A stretch of DNA of 64,000 bases from Thermococcus sp. JdFR-02. GTDB lineage: Archaea > Methanobacteriota_B > Thermococci > Thermococcales > Thermococcaceae. The notes beneath the pieces were generated by a model. It did not search any database. It was not told where the DNA came from and saw nothing but the letters and a program-made list of their open reading frames with translations. The stretch spans positions 64,001-128,000 of the forward strand of contig MTLP01000031.1 of NCBI GenBank assembly GCA_002009975.1, read 5' to 3'. The position numbers were made by a program, and so were the translations under genes. This document shows, in pieces, positions 46,358-58,592 of this stretch (positions are counted from its first letter, which is position 1; each line of letters starts with the position of its first letter).

Positions 46358-47114
46358 TTCTTTCACTCTCCTCTACTTTGAATTCGGGGATATCTTCAAC
46401 AACTCCTTGCTCTTTAAGCTCTTGCAACCTCTTTACTAAGAAATCCTTAACCCTATCAGTTAATCCCTGAGTGTGGCTTTCTCTATTCACCTTTAGAATA
46501 GCTTCAATAGCTAATCTTTCAAGCTCTTGCTTCTTGCCACTCAACCAAACCCAACCGTTTTGTCCAACTATTATGCGCGTTTGTGTCAACGTTTTGATTG
46601 TGTTGATCATTGAACCTCCTTTCCCAATTAAGCGAGGCACTTTTGATGGTGTAATCTTTACTATCTGACCGCCCCTAAGAGGACCTCCACCAAAGGGCAT
46701 TCCCTTTGTCATTAAGTCTATTTGATTCACTTCATTAAAGGCCTTCACTTTTGCATAGATTATATCTCCTATGTCGAAGAATCTCCTTAGATCTACCTTA
46801 AGAAGGTCTATTTTTTCTTCTAAAGCATCTTGAATTCTAAGCGTTGCTTGATAAGGCGCACCAATATCTACTACCCAATTTGAGAATTTTACATCTATTA
46901 TTTTTCCGATGACATTGTCTCCAACTTCTGGAATGTAAGGACCTTCCAGTGGAATAACTCTTATAGTGTCTCCCCTTATGTCTACCAATCCTATAACGGT
47001 AGAGTAAACCCTCGTTCCTTCTTTAAAAGTTCCTTTGCCAGATTTGAATGGTCCTTGAGCTAAAAGCGTTCCTGGAACCACTAACTCCCTATTTGATACA
47101 AAAACCTTTCTCAT
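46341..47114 (-). CDS. rrp4: Exosome RNA-binding protein Rrp4
   Basis: VVPG, YIPEVGD S1 domain, KH motif RLIGKGG. Confidence 0.95.
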
Positions 47115-47821
47115 AGTCCCTTCCTCTCTATAAGTTTAGTCATAACATTGCCCTTTGTAAGGGCGTTTAGTTTTTCATAAAATTCTTCTTCAACTCCACC
47201 TGGAATTTCAATTAAAAACATCCACGAGCCATCTCTTCCCCATTCTTCTTTTTTAATATTTCCAAATTTCCTTACTTCTCCAAAGGCTTTTCCAACGTAT
47301 TCTGAAGGTATTTTAACTGCAATTACTTTTGTTTCAATCTTAAGAGGTAGGACCCTCCTCAACGCTTTAATAATCTGTGGCACTTGGGCTTCAGCATCTT
47401 TAAAGATATCCACATGAACACCAACTTCTTCCATAGCCTTCAAAACCCTATCCGGTGGATGTGGATAACCTGTTCTTGGATCAACAGCATGTCTGTGAAT
47501 TATCATTGCTATTTGCTTCTTTTTCTCCTCAAGCATCTCTCTCCTTTGCTGAGCTGTAAGCTGAACTTCACCTTTTCTAAGGATAATCTTTGCAACCTCG
47601 TAGGGATCGCTTGTCCCAAAGATCTTCTGCATTTCGTTTTCACTGGCTTTATCTCCTTTATGAGCATCTTTAAAAACATAAGGAGTGGCGAGAATTTCTT
47701 CTATTGGAACTTCCTTTCCTTCTTTGAAATCCCTTGCCAAGTAAGGATCTACTAAGATTTCAAAAACATCCCCATGTGTCTTTAATCGAGCAATCACTGC
47801 TTTATCAACGCTTATGGGCAT
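47111..47821 (-). CDS. Ribosome assembly factor SBDS
   Basis: [22 protein letters not shown]. Confidence 0.94.
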
Positions 47822-47832
47822 TGTACTCACCG

Positions 47833-48615
47833 CTAATAATTGTTGTCCAAGTCAGCATAATCAACTTCCTTTTCATCTACTTCTTCAGCCTCAACCTTTT
47901 GGAGAATGTCGGCGAAATACTTTTCAAGCTCCTCTTGGCTTAGCTTTCTAAACTTCTTCTCTTTAACATCAATTACGGCAACTTCAACATATTCTGCCTT
48001 TGGCTCTTCCATGGTCTTAGCTAGGGCAAGCATTGCAAGCTTTATTGCATCTTCTAAAGTCATGTCATCAGTGTATTTCTCCTCAAATATTGCCATTGCT
48101 GTGTTTCTTCCACTTCCTATTGCTACAGCCTTCCACTCAAAGTATGCACCACTTGGATCCGTCTCAAAAAGTTGTGGTTTTTCATTAACTCCAGCCATTA
48201 ACAAAGCGGCACCAAAAGGTCTTACACCACCGTATTGGGTGTGCATTTGCTTTAAATCACAGATCTTTTTAACTAAAACTGCAAGATGAACGGGTTCTCC
48301 ATAAGTTAGGCGATAAATTTGAGCTTCTAAACGAGCTCTATCAACTAAAATTCTTGCATCTGCTATTATTCCACTTGAAGCAGCAGCTATATGCTCATCA
48401 ATTTGGAAAATCTTCTCATAGCTTTCTGGTTCTATTAATCTACTTGTTACTCTTTTTTCTACAGCCAAAACTACTCCATCTTTACATTTTATTCCTACAG
48501 CAGTTGCTCCTCTTTTTACGGCTTCTCTTGCATATTGCACTTGGAAAAGCCTTCCATCCGGGCTAAAAACAGTTATTGCCCTATCATACCCAGCTTGCGG
48601 TGGTACAAACGCCAT
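47833..48615 (-). CDS. psmA: Proteasome subunit alpha
   Basis: [29 protein letters not shown]. Confidence 0.97.
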
Positions 48616-48740
48616 TTTACATCACCTCTAATGATTATCGTAACAGTTATACAATATTCCCTCTCTCCACTTATAAGCTCTTTTAAATATTGGATACTTA
48701 AACTTTTGCATGAACGACAAAAGGAAAACACCGTCTCACA

Positions 48741-49103
48741 TTACTTCCAATCAAATTCTTTCAAAAACTTCATCTTAAGCCTCTTTATTGTCCCAGATAC
48801 ACCAAGCGTTCTCATTATAACCTTTGAACCATTTATCTGGGTAAGCATTGTCAAAGCAAATCTAACTTGCTCCACATAAGCCCTATCGCACCTTACAATT
48901 CCAGTCTGACTCTTCTCATCAAATCTTATGAACCAAATCTTAGCTTTAGCAGTTCCCAATTCCCCCAAAACTCTGAGAGAAGCCTCCCAAATTGCCTTTT
49001 TGATCTCTCCACTCTTAAATGTCCTCTCTCCAATAACCTGAAAAGCTATATATCTTTGCTTATCCCTAAGTGTTGGAGGTAGGGTTTTAGGTTTTTTGTT
49101 CAT
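48741..49103 (-). CDS. rnp2: RNase P protein component 2 (Pop5)
   Basis: [24 protein letters not shown]. Confidence 0.93.
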
Positions 49104-49274
49104 GGAGAAGACTAAAGCAAATGACTTATTAATCTTTATGTTTTGTCAAAATGTCAGAACTCCTCAAAATCTAAGATTCATTTTAGACAATCAACAATGA
49201 AAATTTGATTTTGTCAAATTTTGACGGAAATTCTCCCAAAAAAGCTTTAAGAGTAAAGTTCATTTAAAGACCTT

Positions 49275-49457
49275 GATGCCCTATGATGTTCAGGAGTGAG
49301 TGTCTTTGGAATAGGAGTTAGAGAGTTTAGAATTCTTCTGGTTAGCTTATTCTTCAAAATCAAAGGGCGGGATTGTTTTTGGAATACACATTCTTAGGTT
49401 TGAAGGTATGAATAACGCTTATTCTGATCTTTTTAAACTTTTTAGGAGGTGTTTTAG
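49275..49457 (+). promoter_or_regulatory. Structured 5' leader of trpB2 (putative Trp-responsive RNA switch)
   Basis: TATA TTTAAGAG at 49246; long hairpin 49277-49369; alternative helix with 49415-49425; shares motifs with the leuS leader. Confidence 0.6.
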
Positions 49458-50798
49458 ATGAGAAGAGTTAAGGCAGTTTTAAAAGCCGAAGATATGCCAA
49501 ATAGGTGGTACAACATTTTGCCAGACTTGCCAGAGACTCTACCATTGCCTTTAGATCCAGAGACAAACAAGCCCATAAATCCAGCTAAGCTTGAGAGGAT
49601 TTTTGCAAAGGGATTGGTTAGGCAAGAAGTTAGCGACAAAAGGTATGTAAAAATTCCAGAGGAAGTTTTGGAGAAATACGTAAAAGTTGGTCGTCCAACA
49701 CCGCTTTTTAGAGCAACACATCTAGAGAAGGCATTGAAGACCCCAGCAAGGATTTACTTTAAATATGAAGGGGAAACGATAACGGGAAGCCACAAAATAA
49801 ACACCGCTTTAGCACAGGTCTACTACAACAAGCTTGAGGGAATTGAAAGGGTTGTAACAGAGACGGGAGCAGGACAATGGGGAACTGCTTTATCATTAGC
49901 CGGAGCTTTGTTTGATCTAAAAGTTAGGGTTTACATGGCAAGAGCCAGCTATCAACAAAAGCCATATAGAAAAGTGCTCATGCAAGTGTATGGAGCAGAG
50001 GTTTATCCTTCTCCAAGTGATAGAACGAAGGTTGGAAGATACTTCCTATCGCAAGATCCAAATCACCCCGGTGGATTAGGCATAGCAATAAGTGAAGCGA
50101 TTGAAGATGTATTAACGGATGAAAAAGCGCGCTACTCGTTAGGTAGTGTCTTGAACCATGTATTAATGCACCAGACAATCATAGGGGAAGAGGCTAAACT
50201 TCAAATGGAAATTCTTGGGGAAGAGGCAGACATAATAGTTGGCTGTGTTGGAGGAGGGAGCAACTTTGCTGGAATAGCATATCCCTTCATTAGGGATGCA
50301 ATAAAAGGAAGAAAGGAGATTAAATTTTATGCAATAGAACCTAAAGCCGCACCATCGATGACAAAGGGTATTTACACTTACGATTACGGAGACAGCGGGA
50401 GGTTAACGCCTTTAATAAAGATGCACACCTTAGGGCACATCTACAATGTTCCACCAATCCATGCGGGTGGCTTAAGATATCACGGTGTCGCACCAACTTT
50501 GAGTGTTTTAATTAATAACAACATCGTTAGTCCAAAAGCCTACCATCAAACCGAGATTTTTGAAGCAGCTATGCTCTTTGCAAGGACTGAGGGAATTGTT
50601 CCAGCACCAGAGAGTGCCCATGCAGTTAAAGGGGTTATAGATCTTGCTTTAAAAGCTAAGGAGAAAGGCGAAGAAAAAGTAATACTTTTTAACTTAAGTG
50701 GACACGGACTTTTGGATTTAAAAGGCTATGAAGACTATTTGGATGGAAAAATCCAAGATTATGAACCAAAAGAGATTCCAATTTTGAAAAGCTATTAG
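49458..50798 (+). CDS. trpB2: Tryptophan synthase beta chain, stand-alone TrpB2 type
   Basis: [14 protein letters not shown] (PLP Lys), [34 protein letters not shown]; 446 aa with no trpA nearby. Confidence 0.92.
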
Positions 50799-50799
50799 T

Positions 50800-51450
50800 T
50801 TATCTTTTTTCCAGCTTTTCTAAAATTTTTCTTGGATAAAAACTGATCGAAGCCTTTGCTTGGGGAATTTCCATTCCAATTGCAATTCCAAAGCTTGCTA
50901 AGTCTCTTGGAGCTCTTACTTCCCAAAAACTTTCTGCTGAAGAAGTTAAAAATCTTGGAACCTTGTATTTTTCTATCAATCGCCAGTTTCTCATCATAAA
51001 CTTTAAAATGTTCGCCCTCTCGTAGGGATTTGCCCTTAAAAGGGGAGCAAGAGAAAAGCCTATTGCAACATCATTCTTAGCCGCTAATCTAGCAAGAACA
51101 TGATCTAAGCCAGAGTCTCTTCTTCCAAATTCTGGGCTTATTAAAGCATCGACACCAATTTCAAGAGCAAAGCGGTTGATTTTTAAGCTCCCACCTTGGA
51201 CATATATTAAAGCTTTGAGATTCCTATTTTTCACTTCCCTAATCAAAGAAGGTTTGTTTGTTATCAAAAGCAGGGCAACTTTTTTATAACGCTCTCTAAG
51301 TTCTTTAAGCTCTTCTTTGAGCTTCCCATAATCTGGACTTTTCTCTAACTTAAGCTTTTTTGTAAAGACTACTTCATCAAACCATTCTTCAGCCAATTCG
51401 TAAGCCTTTGCATCCCTAATATCCATCTCAATGAACTGTAATGATGTCAT
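50800..51450 (-). CDS. rnp3: RNase P protein component 3 (Rpp30)
   Basis: [22 protein letters not shown]; superoperon position. Confidence 0.9.
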
Positions 51451-51902
51451 TCGCTCAACCACTCTCCAATAGCCCTTACAACGGTCTCTTTCTTCATTGG
51501 GAAGGATTTAACCTTTATTCTAACATGAATTACATCCTCTCCATCTAAAACTTTAATCTCTCCAAGGTAAGCCTTCTGCTTATCAAAGCGAATGTAGAAG
51601 GTTCCGTTCTCATCTACCTTTTCCTCTAAATTCTCCAAGAGAAATGCTTTATCTTCCTCGCTTAAGATGTTTTTGAGGTTTTCTAAAAACTTTCTAACGT
51701 TCCTACTTCTCTTTATCTCTGCATCAATAACGAGTATGGGATTTCCAAAGTATCCCTCTGTCTCAACCATTTCAAACTCCACATCTTTTGGAGACAAATC
51801 TTCAGGGAAGAGAGTTTCTAAAGCTTCTAAAACCTTTTCAGGATCTTCAGTGGCATGGACAAATGTTCTAATTTTGACATTATGAGCATTAAGCTTAACC
51901 AT
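51447..51902 (-). CDS. Exosome-operon RNA-binding protein (DUF54-like)
   Basis: [22 protein letters not shown]. Confidence 0.85.
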
Positions 51903-51984
51903 AAATTTCACCCCAAAGTTAATTGGAAATAAGGTTTAAAAGCTTTTAACTGCCAAAAATACCTAAGAAAGAAATTAAACACCA

Positions 51985-55204: not shown

Positions 55205-55258
55205 TTTGTGGTTCTCCGCAGAGCGGAACATCCCGCGGGCTAAACCCGCTTAGTCGTG
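55205..55258 (-). promoter_or_regulatory. Structured rpl15e leader (eL15 r-leader-like)
   Basis: Two GC-rich hairpins at 55235-55249 and 55211-55229, between a TTTAAA TATA and the SD. Confidence 0.65.
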
Positions 55259-55582: not shown

Positions 55583-55727
55583 GATGCCAATGAGGGGGGA
55601 TAGAGTTCTCAACGATTAAAGGTTACTTCTATGCTGATCCCCCTATTTGGCACTATCAACGCTTTTCCCCTTTTGAAATGCAAACTGTTTTAAGTTCCCA
55701 TTTTAACAACTTCAAGGAGGTTAGGGT
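55583..55727 (+). promoter_or_regulatory. Structured 5' leader of leuS (putative Leu-responsive RNA switch)
   Basis: TATA TTTAAATA at 55553; hairpin 55585-55652; alternative helix 55593-55607 with 55658-55672. Confidence 0.62.
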
Positions 55728-58592
55728 ATGGTAGATTGGAAAGCAATTGAAGAAAAGTGGCAAAAGAAATGGAGCGAAGAGAAAGTCTTTGAACCTCAAA
55801 TTGGTGAAAAGCCAAAATTCTATATAACGGTAGCATTTCCTTACTTATCTGGGCATTTACATGTAGGACATGCAAGAACTTATACAATCCCAGACGTAAT
55901 TGCAAGATTCAAGAGAATGCAGGGATACAACGTATTATTCCCAATGGCTTGGCACATAACAGGTTCACCAATAGTTGGAATTGCAGAAAGAATTAAGCAT
56001 AGAGATCCCCAAACAATTTTCGTTTATAGAGACGTCTATAAAGTCCCTGAGGAGATTCTATGGACATTTGAAGATCCAGTGAATATCGTGAAGTACTTCA
56101 TGAAAGCAGCAAAAGAGACTTTTAATAGAGCTGGATTTAGCGTAGATTGGAGTAGAGAATTCCACACAACATCTCTACATCCGCAGTTCAATGCTTTCAT
56201 AACTTGGCAGTTCTTAAAGCTAAAGGAGAAGGGATTAGTTGTTAAAGGAACTCACAGAGTTAGATGGGATCCTGTTGTTGGGACTCCTTTAGGAGATCAC
56301 GACTTAATTGAAGGCGAAGATGTTCAAATCTTAGAATATATCCTAATCAAGTTCATCTTAGAAGAAAATGGTAAGCGTATTTATTTACCAGCCGCAACCC
56401 TAAGACCAGAAACAGTTTATGGAGTAACTAATATGTGGCTAAATCCAGATGCTACATACGTTAAAGCAAAGGTTAATGATGAAATTTGGGTCATAAGCAG
56501 AGAAGCCGCTTATAAGTTAAGCTTTCAAGACAAGAAGATTGAAGTCTTAGAGGAATTCAAAGGAGAAAAATTAATTGGAAAATGGGTCAAAAACCCAGTA
56601 ACTGGCGATGAAATTATCATTCTACCAGCAGATTTTGTTGATCCAGATAATGCAACCGGTGTAGTTATGAGTGTTCCAGCACATGCGCCCTTTGATCATG
56701 CGGCATTAGAGGACATTAAAAAGAATACTGAGCTATTGTTAAAGTACGACATTGATCCTAGGATTGTAGAAAACATAAGCTACATTTCTTTAATTAAGTT
56801 AGAGGGATATGGAGAATTCCCAGCAGTTGAAGAGGCTCAAAAATTGGGTGTTAAGAGTCAGGAAGATAAAGAAAAGTTAGAGCAGGCAACAAAGAACATC
56901 TACAAAGCTGAGTTCCATAAGGGTGTGTTCAAGATAGAACCATACAAAGGAGTTCCTGTGAGCAAAGTAAAAGACCTGATTGCCAACGATATGAAAGAGA
57001 AAGGAATAGCTGATATGATGTATGAATTTGCTGAAAAGAACGTTATTTCGAGATTTGGAAATAGAGCGGTAATTAAAATTATTCATGACCAATGGTTCAT
57101 AGATTATGGAAACCCAGAATGGAAAGAAAAGGCGAGAGAAGCTTTAGCCAACATGAAGATTTTACCAGAGTCAAGAAGAGCTCAATTTGAAGCTATTGTC
57201 GAGTGGTTAGACAAGAAAGCTTGTGCAAGGAAAGTGGGTTTAGGAACATCACTACCTTGGGACAGGGAATGGGTTATCGAAAGCTTGAGCGATTCAACCA
57301 TTTATATGGCTTACTACACAATTTCAAGAGTTATCAACAAGCATGGAATTAAAGGGGAACAATTAATCCCAGAGTTATTTGATTACATATTCTTAGAAGA
57401 GTTCAGTGGAGCTAGGGAGGAAGAGCTAGGCAAAAAGACCGGAATTCCAAAGGAAGTTATTAGAGAGATGAAAGAAGAGTTCGAGTACTGGTATCCATTA
57501 GACTGGAGATGCTCAGCTAAGGACTTAATTCCAAATCACTTAACATTCTTCATATTCAACCACGTTGCAATATTCAAGAAGAAGCACTGGCCAAGAGGAA
57601 TTGCTGTAAACGGGTATGGAACATTAGAAGGCAAGAAAATGAGCAAGAGTAAGGGTAATGTCTTGAACTTTATTGATGCAATTAAGGAAAATGGAGCAGA
57701 TGTAGTGAGATTTTATATCATGAGCTTAGCTGAACATGACAGTGACTTCGATTGGAGAAGAGCAGAGGTTGCAAAGTTAAAGGGACAATTGGAGAGATTT
57801 TACGAACTAATAGAACAATTTGCAAGCTATGAAATCAGAGAAGGCGTTAAACTAAAAGATATTGATCGCTGGCTATTACACCGCTTAAACAAGGCAATTT
57901 ATGAAACCACAAAAGCTTTAGATGAATTTAGGACAAGAACGGCATCTCAATGGGCATTCTACAGCATTTTAAATGACCTAAAATGGTACATGAGAAGAAC
58001 TGAAGGAAGAGATGACGATGCAAAGCGCTATGTGTTAAGAAGCTTAGCAGATGTTTGGGTTAGGTTAATGGCACCGTTTACACCTCACATCTGTGAAGAA
58101 TTGTGGCAAAAATTAGGCGGAAATGGATTCGTGAGCTTAGCTAAGTGGCCCGAGCCTAAAGAAGAGTGGTGGAACGAGGAGCTGGAAATTGAGGAGGAAT
58201 ACATCAAAGACCTAATTGATGATATCAAAGAAATTCTAAGCGTTGCAAAGATTGAGAATCCAAAGAGGGCTTACATTTATACAGCTGAAGATTGGAAGTG
58301 GAAGATAGCGGAGATAGTTGCCCAAAAGAAGGACTTCAAAGCGGCAATGAGTGAAGCCATGAAAGACCCAGAGATGAGAAAGAAAGGTAAAGAAGTTGCC
58401 AACCTCGTGAATAGATTAATAAAAGAGAGGGTCTTTGAAGTGAAGCGCATTGACGAAGAAAAAGCATTGAGAGAATCAAAAGACTTCATTGAGAAAGAAA
58501 TTGGTTTAGAAATAATTATCAATCCAGAAGAGGATAAAGGTGGAAAGAAGAAGCAAGCAATGCCAATGAAACCTGCCGTGTTTATTGAGTAA
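55728..58592 (+). CDS. leuS: Leucine--tRNA ligase (archaeal type)
   Basis: [33 protein letters not shown] editing motif, ESLSDST, KMSKS. Confidence 0.96.

Follow-up and report, generated by a model that had tools for sequence, protein, structure and literature searches.

What does the leader of trpB2 do in Thermococcus sp. JdFR-02? The gene lies in a stretch of 64,000 nt (NCBI GenBank assembly GCA_002009975.1, contig MTLP01000031.1, positions 64,001 to 128,000 of the forward strand), which is called the window here. It encodes a TrpB-like enzyme, and the 183 nt ahead of it (49275-49457) contain a conserved Trp codon. To our knowledge, the ways in which archaea match amino acid supply to demand are poorly understood. 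A preliminary description, made from the letters of the window, read these 183 nt as a two-state RNA switch that responds to Trp. We consider it probable that the leader is instead translated and senses charged tRNA-Trp through programmed +1 ribosomal frameshifting at successive sites. Its conserved features are features of the reading frame, and they point to translation with +1 frameshifting at Trp codons and not to RNA refolding.

Trp-codon cassettes and the open path through the leader

The leaders were found through a 17-nt core, GGAGTGAnnGTnTTTGG (49293-49309), which is also the first cassette (M1) of the window's leader. Of 97 Thermococcaceae genomes, 79 contained the core, usually in a single copy, and all 6 genera were represented among them. 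The reversed control pattern gave 2 matches, and the conservation of the core is far above chance. By blastn against relatives, positions 49273-49311 were 92-95% identical in another genus, and a second copy was present in the window's own genome (G000).

The core was found at 84 places. We read 81 of these (3 were not read), and together with related loci they gave 83 loci. Removal of 4 identical duplicates left 79 distinct leaders. One of them (L213) was excluded because it lies inside an open reading frame (ORF) and has no other leader features. The remaining 78 leaders precede trpB2 (61 leaders), a trpB2 without a start of its own (L155), a gene for a sodium-dependent transporter (14 leaders) and odd trpB2 loci (L016 and L200). 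L016 (G013:C62) contains an intact M1 followed only by a C-terminal trpB2 remnant. It comes from a metagenome-assembled genome (MAG) that is 78% complete, and the locus may be decayed. A wider contig scan with the 17-nt pattern returned mostly chance matches in unrelated bacteria among the matches listed. It also returned L083, from a Thermococcus MAG, which was useful.

The leader of the window has the following features. SD stands for Shine-Dalgarno and T5 for a run of five Ts.

49240-49253, plus strand: promoter, with an A-rich run resembling a B recognition element (BRE) and then a TATA-like box TTTAAGAG (49246-49253); read from the sequence and the 78-leader profile
49275-49282, plus strand: predicted transcript start (the G of GATGCC) and 8-nt untranslated 5' end; placed by the TATA spacing and by conservation, which begins here
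49283-49321, plus strand: leader ORF in the zero frame, MMFRSECLWNRS then a stop; read from the translation and from a start-to-TGG ORF in 78/78 leaders
49293-49309, plus strand: cassette M1, with SD-like run GGAGTGAGT, slippery CTT (49304-06) and Trp codon TGG (49307-09)
49308-49397, plus strand: second frame, +1 relative to the leader ORF, GIGVREFRILLVSLFFKIKGRDCFWNTHS then a stop; open from M1 to the TGG of the second cassette (M2), with TAG four codons past that TGG; the frame is kept in every leader with an M2
49366-49382, plus strand: cassette M2, with SD-like run GGCGGGATT, slippery TTT (49377-79) and Trp codon TGG (49380-82)
49381-49461, plus strand: third frame, +1 again; it spans the T5 tracts and the SD sequence, and its TGA (49459-61) overlaps the trpB2 ATG (49458-60) as ATGA
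49414-49425, plus strand: conserved 3' element AACGCTTATTCT, with the Thermococcus counterpart GCTCATTATTCCCTC; recognized by nucleotide-level conservation
49430-34 and 49439-43, plus strand: two T5 tracts within the third frame
49445-49451, plus strand: SD sequence of trpB2, GGAGGTG, conserved in the leader alignment; it precedes the trpB2 ATG at 49458

Each of the 78 leaders begins about 30 nt past a TATA box. Numbered from the G of GATG (+1), positions -34 to -32 hold A in 66-72 of the 78 leaders, and positions -28 to -23 hold a T/A box. Archaeal BRE and TATA elements usually lie at these distances from a start, which would place the transcript start at or beside that G. The leader is conserved, and the profile bears out the earlier placement of its first bases at GATGCC, downstream of a TATA box.

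All 78 leaders contain an in-frame start 6-8 codons ahead of TGG. The start is ATG in 77 of them, and L150 has GTG or TTG instead. In the window, the ATG is at leader position 9 (49283). The leader peptide follows the pattern MxxRS[DE]xFW. A zero-frame stop lies 1-4 codons beyond the M1 TGG in 73/78 leaders. The indels between the ATG and AGG are all multiples of 3 (-3, -3 and -6 nt). The other ATG, the one within GATG just upstream, is brought in frame by a 1-nt change in two leaders. It is lost in several others, in which the ATG at position 9 is kept.

A cassette consists of an SD-like G-rich run, a slippery (T/C)TT and then TGG. Leaders of trpB2 contain three cassettes (49 leaders) or two (12 leaders, the window included), transporter leaders contain one or two, and four are rare. 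TTT-TGG or CTT-TGG is invariant at every cassette. CTTTGG, with only three Ts, is present at M1 of the window and in two other leaders, and most relatives have TTT at M1. The G-rich run ends 2 nt ahead of the codon in the ribosomal peptidyl (P) site, in Trp cassettes and in the Leu cassettes of leuS alike. These runs are near-complementary to the 16S rRNA 3' end ...GATCACCTCCT of a relative (G005). The sequence was taken from this relative because no 16S rRNA gene is present in the 44-contig assembly of G000, which is 99.99% complete by marker genes.

The spacing between successive TGG codons is a multiple of three plus one (3n+1) in 116 of 119 cases. The spacings have 12 distinct lengths between 25 and 142 nt, and 3n+2 never occurs. 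In the window, the distance from the M1 TGG to the M2 TGG is 73 nt, which is also 3n+1. The sequence between the cassettes varies freely in composition and length. The three exceptions (L158, L179 and L198) have 3n spacings; each is 1 nt shorter and lacks a single G in a G-run. A stop in the frame being read follows each TGG within a few codons. The next frame opens about 17-26 nt ahead of sites 2 and 3.

In a simulation, a ribosome began at the leader ATG and shifted by +1 whenever it met (T/C)TT-TGG in frame. In 50 of the 61 trpB2 leaders, including that of the window, its path is stop-free across three or four frames and ends exactly at the TGA of the ATGA at the trpB2 start. In the others, the path ends at -4 (3 leaders), -3 (2 leaders), +11 (3 leaders) or +17 (1 leader) relative to the trpB2 start. 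The path of L202 runs in frame into trpB2, and the gene start of L211 is misassigned. As controls, the path without shifts fell 60-240 nt short of the trpB2 start, and the -1 path (equivalent to +2) fell 38-225 nt short. Stop codons make up 6-11% of the codons in the two frames outside the path. There is no upstream in-frame ATG, GTG or TTG for the frame of site 2 in 51/58 leaders and for the frame of site 3 in 44/47.

L155 is from genus g2 (G024:C1, around 1404605), in a genome that is 99% complete in one contig. Its trpB2 has neither an SD sequence nor an ATG of its own, and the N-terminal region continues from the +1 frame of M1. This arrangement suggests that TrpB2 synthesis here requires either a frameshift or a start at the GTG inside M1. 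At this locus, plain ORF calling selects an internal ATG about 320 nt past the first base of the leader, which would remove the N-terminal part.

The three leaders with 3n spacing are also informative. When L158, L179 and L198 are compared with L153 and L162, the TGG of the shortened cassette no longer lies in frame, and the path reaches ATGA all the same with one shift fewer. This is how a hard-wired shift would look. The three leaders could be natural hard-wired shifts, or they could contain homopolymer sequencing errors.

The cassettes, the 3n+1 phasing, the open three-frame path and its end are read from the compared sequences; the steps that would connect them are proposed as follows. Transcription would start at about 49275. 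Ribosomes would begin at the ATG at 49283 and reach M1, with the SD-like run behind them, the slippery CTT in the P site and TGG, a codon read by a single tRNA, in the aminoacyl (A) site. With plentiful Trp-tRNA, TGG would be decoded, and the ribosome would stop 1-4 codons on. With scarce Trp-tRNA, the waiting ribosome would slip +1 (CUU or UUU to UUU), read GGN and go on in the new frame to M2. The choice would be repeated at M2, and again in most Thermococcus leaders, which have a third site; a few have a fourth. Only ribosomes that slip at all sites would cover the whole leader and terminate at the ATGA over the trpB2 start codon.

Arrival at the ATGA would raise trpB2 expression. It may do so by termination-reinitiation coupling, by shielding the U-tract-rich nascent RNA from premature termination, or by both. 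The T5 tracts at 49430-49443 may be archaeal U-tract termination signals. This role is drawn from the available text of two papers on U-tract and FttA/aCPSF1 termination in Archaea (PMC8716108, PMC11616081). We infer the slipping itself, its dependence on Trp and the rise in expression when ribosomes reach the ATGA.

Points against frameshifting and rival explanations

Several points weigh against the frameshift reading. Its whole basis is comparative sequence analysis, which is computational. The leader ORF starts 8 nt from the predicted 5' end and has no SD sequence, so that initiation at the leader ATG is assumed. The path misses the ATGA in 11/61 trpB2 leaders. In the 14 transporter leaders, the path crosses the SD sequence and ends 5-62 nt inside the gene, never at an ATGA. 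Inside M1, at leader position 22, all 59 trpB2 leaders examined contain a GTG in the frame of M2. The first step alone could therefore be an ordinary start without a frameshift. The trpB2 SD sequence is strong, and no consistent partner that would mask it emerged from ViennaRNA partition functions computed for 59 leaders (70 C); the partners vary among leaders. The model leaves low expression under plentiful Trp unexplained.

The strongly conserved 3' element (49414-25; TTATTCCCTC in relatives) also has no part in the model. Its nucleotides are near-invariant, yet the reading frame across it varies by genus. Finally, a closely related strain found in metatranscriptome contigs has a 1-nt deletion at 49416, in the last frame of the leader (runs X1, X2 and X4), which would move the end of the path from ATGA to +11. 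These contigs come from runs X1-X4 of one marine-sediment study and cover the intergenic region. Starts, ends, strand and frame are not readable from them, they may include DNA, and they were not counted as evidence for a leader transcript. On the single contig that spans the stretch, 36 of 1201 positions differ between the strain and the window.

The 3' element shows some variation in use. In L083 and other Thermococcus leaders it reads TTATTCCCTC(r)(y)(y)TTTGGGA. In L209, L176 and L207 its TGG is in frame and serves as an additional shift site.

The preliminary description was accurate as a reading of the letters. All of its strings are at the positions it gave: TGCCCTATGATGTT (49277-90), AGGAGTGAGT (49292-301), GCTTATTCTT (49345-54), AAAATCAAAGGGCG (49356-69) and AACGCTTATTCT (49414-25). 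GATGCC starts at 49275, 29 nt past the T of TTTAAGAG (49246-49253), as described. Reading the sequence also confirmed TGG (49307-09) before AAT, GGTTA (49340-44) and both T5 tracts. Its choice of TGG 49307-09 as the key codon holds, with an invariant TGG in 54 aligned trpB2 leaders; this TGG was also part of the search pattern. The tie to tryptophan holds as well, through trpB2 and a transporter of the NSS type as the downstream genes.

The proposed folding fared differently. The 5' hairpin is present in the minimum free energy (MFE) fold of 49275-49457 and is not clearly above chance. The MFE was -46.4 kcal/mol, compared with -39.4 on average for the shuffles (z = -1.72), of which 12/200 were equal or better. 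Across the 54 orthologous leaders, the two helices of the switch pair in 59.1% of cells, the same as the shuffles do on average (59.1%). At least as much pairing was found in 267/500 shuffles, covariation was not in excess, and the two-state switch found no support in this comparison. The 3' arm of the second helix sits in an insertion that is absent from 53/54 relatives. The description had named conservation of the stems or of TGG as one deciding point; the stems are not conserved in the aligned leaders, and TGG is.

RNAalifold on the same 54 leaders gave no conserved structure (-6.63 kcal/mol, 0/17 pairs compensatory) and no conserved hairpin besides a 3-bp CCC/GGG stem. Searches with Rfam 15 gave no T-box and no other relevant match in the region, at gathering score over the whole window or at E up to 10 over 48700-49900. 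Weak rows for snoR53Y, RgsA and NEAT1 were far under their gathering scores and were set aside. The alternative helix between M1 and AACGCTTATTCT can be drawn in all genera. Both of its partners are almost invariant, so covariation cannot test the pairing. Two further candidates were rejected. One was a kink-turn or box C/D reading of ATGAT...GTGA / CTGA, noticed by eye, of which the flanking stems do not covary. The other was a T-box-like pairing with the anticodon loop or CCA end of tRNA-Trp, for which the sequences flanking TGG are not conserved as needed.

A structured RNA switch, as in the preliminary description or of the T-box or metabolite riboswitch kind, would sense Trp or tRNA-Trp and toggle U-tract termination or SD access. 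The window's sequence does fold into the described hairpin, TGG is conserved, and the 3' element can pair with M1. Against this stand stem pairing at the shuffle mean with one arm in a window-specific insertion, the 0 compensatory pairs, the missing Rfam match and a fold z of only -1.72. Inspection by eye also showed no conserved complement to the anticodon loop of tRNA-Trp near the TGGs, and we hold such a switch to be highly improbable. Classical leader-peptide attenuation does better and is still unlikely. Here a ribosome stalled at the Trp codon would alter RNA folding or U-tract termination as in bacterial trpL, and M2 and the third cassette (M3) would be pairing or termination elements only. 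It would account for a short ORF with a conserved Trp codon in 78/78 leaders, for T5 tracts in each cassette and ahead of the SD sequence, and for the pairing of M1 with the 3' element. It leaves unexplained the 3n+1 phasing (116/119), the stop-free second and third frames that reach the ATGA, the fast zero-frame stops after M2 and M3 and the L155 fusion, and its alternative hairpins have no covariation support. Several independent or reinitiating small ORFs, with the Trp codons as stall sites, make a quite unlikely explanation. The second frame would start from the GTG in M1, and the later frames would arise by termination-reinitiation or from non-canonical starts. The position-22 GTG fits this in all 59 trpB2 leaders examined, and L155 could start trpB2 at the same codon. 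This GTG directly abuts the SD-like run with no spacer, however, and M2 and M3 have GGG in its place. The frames without an upstream start codon (51/58 at site 2, 44/47 at site 3) also count against small ORFs. Reinitiation would need neither a frame that opens about 20 nt before each site nor an exact 3n+1 spacing.

Two other explanations treat the frame features as secondary or as already joined in the transcript. The 17-nt repeat might be a binding site, either in DNA, as an operator for a Trp-responsive roadblock repressor, or in RNA, for a TRAP-like protein. Such a site would suit a motif that is common to two functionally related genes and stands as two to four direct repeats downstream of a promoter. 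A TRAP site has nine to eleven (G/U)AG triplets, 2-3 nt apart; by inspection, no such arrays are present in the 78 leaders. Binding also does not explain a spacing of 25-142 nt that is yet kept at 3n+1, or freely evolving intervening sequence that remains stop-free in one frame. The Leu version at leuS swaps exactly the codon, and taken together these points make a binding site very unlikely. Transcriptional slippage on the T5 tracts, in which RNA polymerase would drop one U and some transcripts would have their frames pre-joined, is extremely improbable. There is a T run in every cassette, and the path is unbroken in the natural variants that are 1 nt shorter (L158, L179). For transcriptional slippage, 5 T is a short run, and CTTTGG in the window and in two other leaders offers just three. 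Slippage does not explain the invariant TGG and the SD-like run. The shorter variants miss a G of the G-run and not a T, and the X1-X4 contigs have no length change at T runs.

The leuS leader and the transporter

The preliminary description had also placed a leuS leader of the same window in the family. We found the same design there, with a Leu codon.

55583-55734, plus strand: leuS leader, with GATG at 55583, the ORF MRGDRVLND at 55590-55619 and the leuS start at 55728

The cassette in the window consists of a G-rich run, then GA, GTT and CTC (55608-10). Its +1 frame is open to a TAG at 55732-34, just inside leuS. The motif was present in 29/30 leuS loci (five other genera and the window), in which the upstream ORF reads MRGDRVL. 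The +1 frame from CTC is open to the leuS start in 29/29 leaders that have the motif. Its stop lies between -6 and +20, with 17 leaders at +4. The ORF without a shift ends 59-111 nt ahead of the start. In the leuS leaders, CTC replaces TGG in an otherwise shared design, so the family is real, and its variable part is the cognate codon.

The protein encoded behind the transporter leaders matches NF037979. Its best solved relative is chain 4us3_A (E = 3.6e-78), listed as 'sodium-dependent transporter', which we take to be a bacterial hydrophobic amino acid/Trp transporter. The co-regulated sodium-dependent transporter is probably a Trp importer, and the frameshift reading predicts the same. A strict cassette scan of the window's own genome for further members of the regulon gave only leuS and the transporter, plus false positives inside genes. 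One match resembling M2 in that genome (C21) lies within the ORF of a membrane protein and was dismissed as a chance match.

On balance, we favor a general statement for the Thermococcales. They would read the charging of individual tRNAs via 'frameshift ladders': a ribosome that slips +1 at each of one to four phased cassettes with the cognate codon would reach the downstream gene and turn it on. Trp cassettes would act on trpB2 and the Trp importer, and the Leu cassette would act on leuS. Other genes for amino acid metabolism and aminoacyl-tRNA synthetases with long 5' leaders may carry versions with other codons. The available text of a T. kodakarensis transcriptome study (PMC4247193) gives 11 mRNAs of 'aminoacyl-tRNA biosynthesis functions' with long 5' untranslated regions.

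If this is true, charged-tRNA sensing would have a new logic, a digital, multi-step choice of reading frame instead of RNA refolding. The device would be kept across a hyperthermophile family and reused with another codon for an aminoacyl-tRNA synthetase. The reading would account for annotated trpB2 genes that seemingly have no start, as in L155. The leader could also be a compact, tunable part for amino acid-responsive expression in thermophiles. The claim is directly testable in T. kodakarensis, which is genetically tractable.

Known systems and genome setting

The sites resemble known +1 frameshift sites. They contain a P-site codon that can re-pair, followed by TGG, which would be decoded slowly under Trp limitation. 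The zero frame closes, the +1 frame opens, and the arrangement is conserved. In bacteria, the gene for release factor 2, prfB, contains a +1 site with an SD-like run a few nucleotides upstream of the slippery codon and a P-site slip from CUU to UUU. M1 of the window (CTT-TGG) has an SD-like run in a similar place, with a 2-nt spacing that resembles that of the prfB stimulator, and would allow the same slip. In both cases, how often the shift happens would be set by a slowly decoded A-site codon, a zero-frame stop follows at once, and the +1 frame holds the useful product; the fused trpB2 of the L155 type is directly comparable. Unlike in prfB, the sensor here would be a sense codon (Trp, or Leu at leuS) and not UGA, and it would sense charged tRNA and not release factor. 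The sites here are also serial (two to four), the shifted frames mostly encode no functional protein and would only bring the ribosome to the gene start, and the host is archaeal. The prfB site is described in part in the available text of PMC5009743, a 2016 review.

The same text covers three other comparisons. The yeast Ty1 and ABP140 sites (CUU-AGG-C) share with these leaders a heptamer, here UUU/CUU-UGG-N, a scarce A-site aminoacyl-tRNA and, as in Ty1, a +1 codon GGN (PMC5009743). Ty1 sets a fixed ratio of two proteins in yeast, whereas the leaders here would be sensors with an SD-like stimulator and repeated sites. In the ketolide-induced frameshift of the ermC leader, ribosomes that change frame translate into the spacer and enable the downstream gene, as proposed here (PMC5009743). 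There the inducer is an antibiotic that acts on the ribosome and not amino acid supply, one event takes place and not a phased series, and the host is bacterial. Frameshifting at pheL is described as apparently incidental (PMC5009743).

The trpL, pheL, hisL and leuL attenuators also have a short ORF with a cognate codon before a gene of the same pathway. They sense charged tRNA via the ribosome, and U-rich tracts follow the ORF. The leaders here differ in that each ORF has one Trp codon and not a tandem run, no alternative hairpins covary, and the read-out would be a change of frame. Of the parts of a trpL-type attenuator, the short ORF with a cognate codon is present, and mutually exclusive terminator and antiterminator hairpins are not. 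T-box riboswitches likewise sense tRNA charging through a cognate codon and control amino acid genes, transporters and an aminoacyl-tRNA synthetase. The leader has no Stem I, specifier loop, antiterminator or Rfam match, and sensing here would need translation.

Slippage by +1 at hungry codons, stimulation by SD-like runs and leader ORFs are known elementary events. An archaeal amino acid sensor built from a phased series of frameshift sites at cognate codons is not known to have been described, and we therefore rate it as a new kind of system, with a mechanism that we regard as likely. It would be the archaeal equivalent, based on translation, of the T-box and attenuator systems of bacteria, and the first regulatory programmed frameshift shown in Archaea. 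We found no description of this leader, or of frameshift-based amino acid sensing, in the open-access full texts searched. As far as the available text of the T. kodakarensis study goes, attenuators or riboswitches had no direct experimental support as regulators in Archaea (PMC4247193). A 2021 review, in its available part, reports only one programmed -1 frameshift in Archaea (PMC8211752). The words tryptophan, Thermococcus and Pyrococcus are absent from its main text.

The leader lies in a spacer between two genes.

48741-49103, minus strand: gene for a Pop5-type RNase P subunit
49104-49457: intergenic spacer between the Pop5-type RNase P subunit gene and trpB2
49458-50798, plus strand: trpB2, encoding a TrpB-like pyridoxal phosphate enzyme of 446 amino acids (TIGR01415, NF009057, Pfam PALP)

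The TrpB2 protein scored 709.7 bits with NCBIfam TIGR01415 and 711.1 bits with NF009057, and it also matched Pfam PALP. The genes around trpB2 encode proteasome alpha, SBDS and Rpp30. Within 47111-51911, trpB2 is on the strand opposite to a conserved RNase P/proteasome/SBDS run (Rpp30 ... Pop5, PsmA, SBDS). The divergent Pop5/trpB2 pair is also present in genus g5 (L012, L013, L018 and L019).

No trpA was found above the Pfam cut-off in the window's genome. TrpB2, probably by indole salvage, and import by the transporter would therefore be the routes to Trp in this genome, and the organism may depend on both. The genome contains one tRNA-Trp gene (G000:C2:61727-61871), which has a 67-nt intron in the anticodon loop. 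Elsewhere in the window, 55205-55248 on the minus strand matches the Rfam ribosomal protein leader eL15-Euryarchaeota with 35.1 bits against a gathering score of 33.7.

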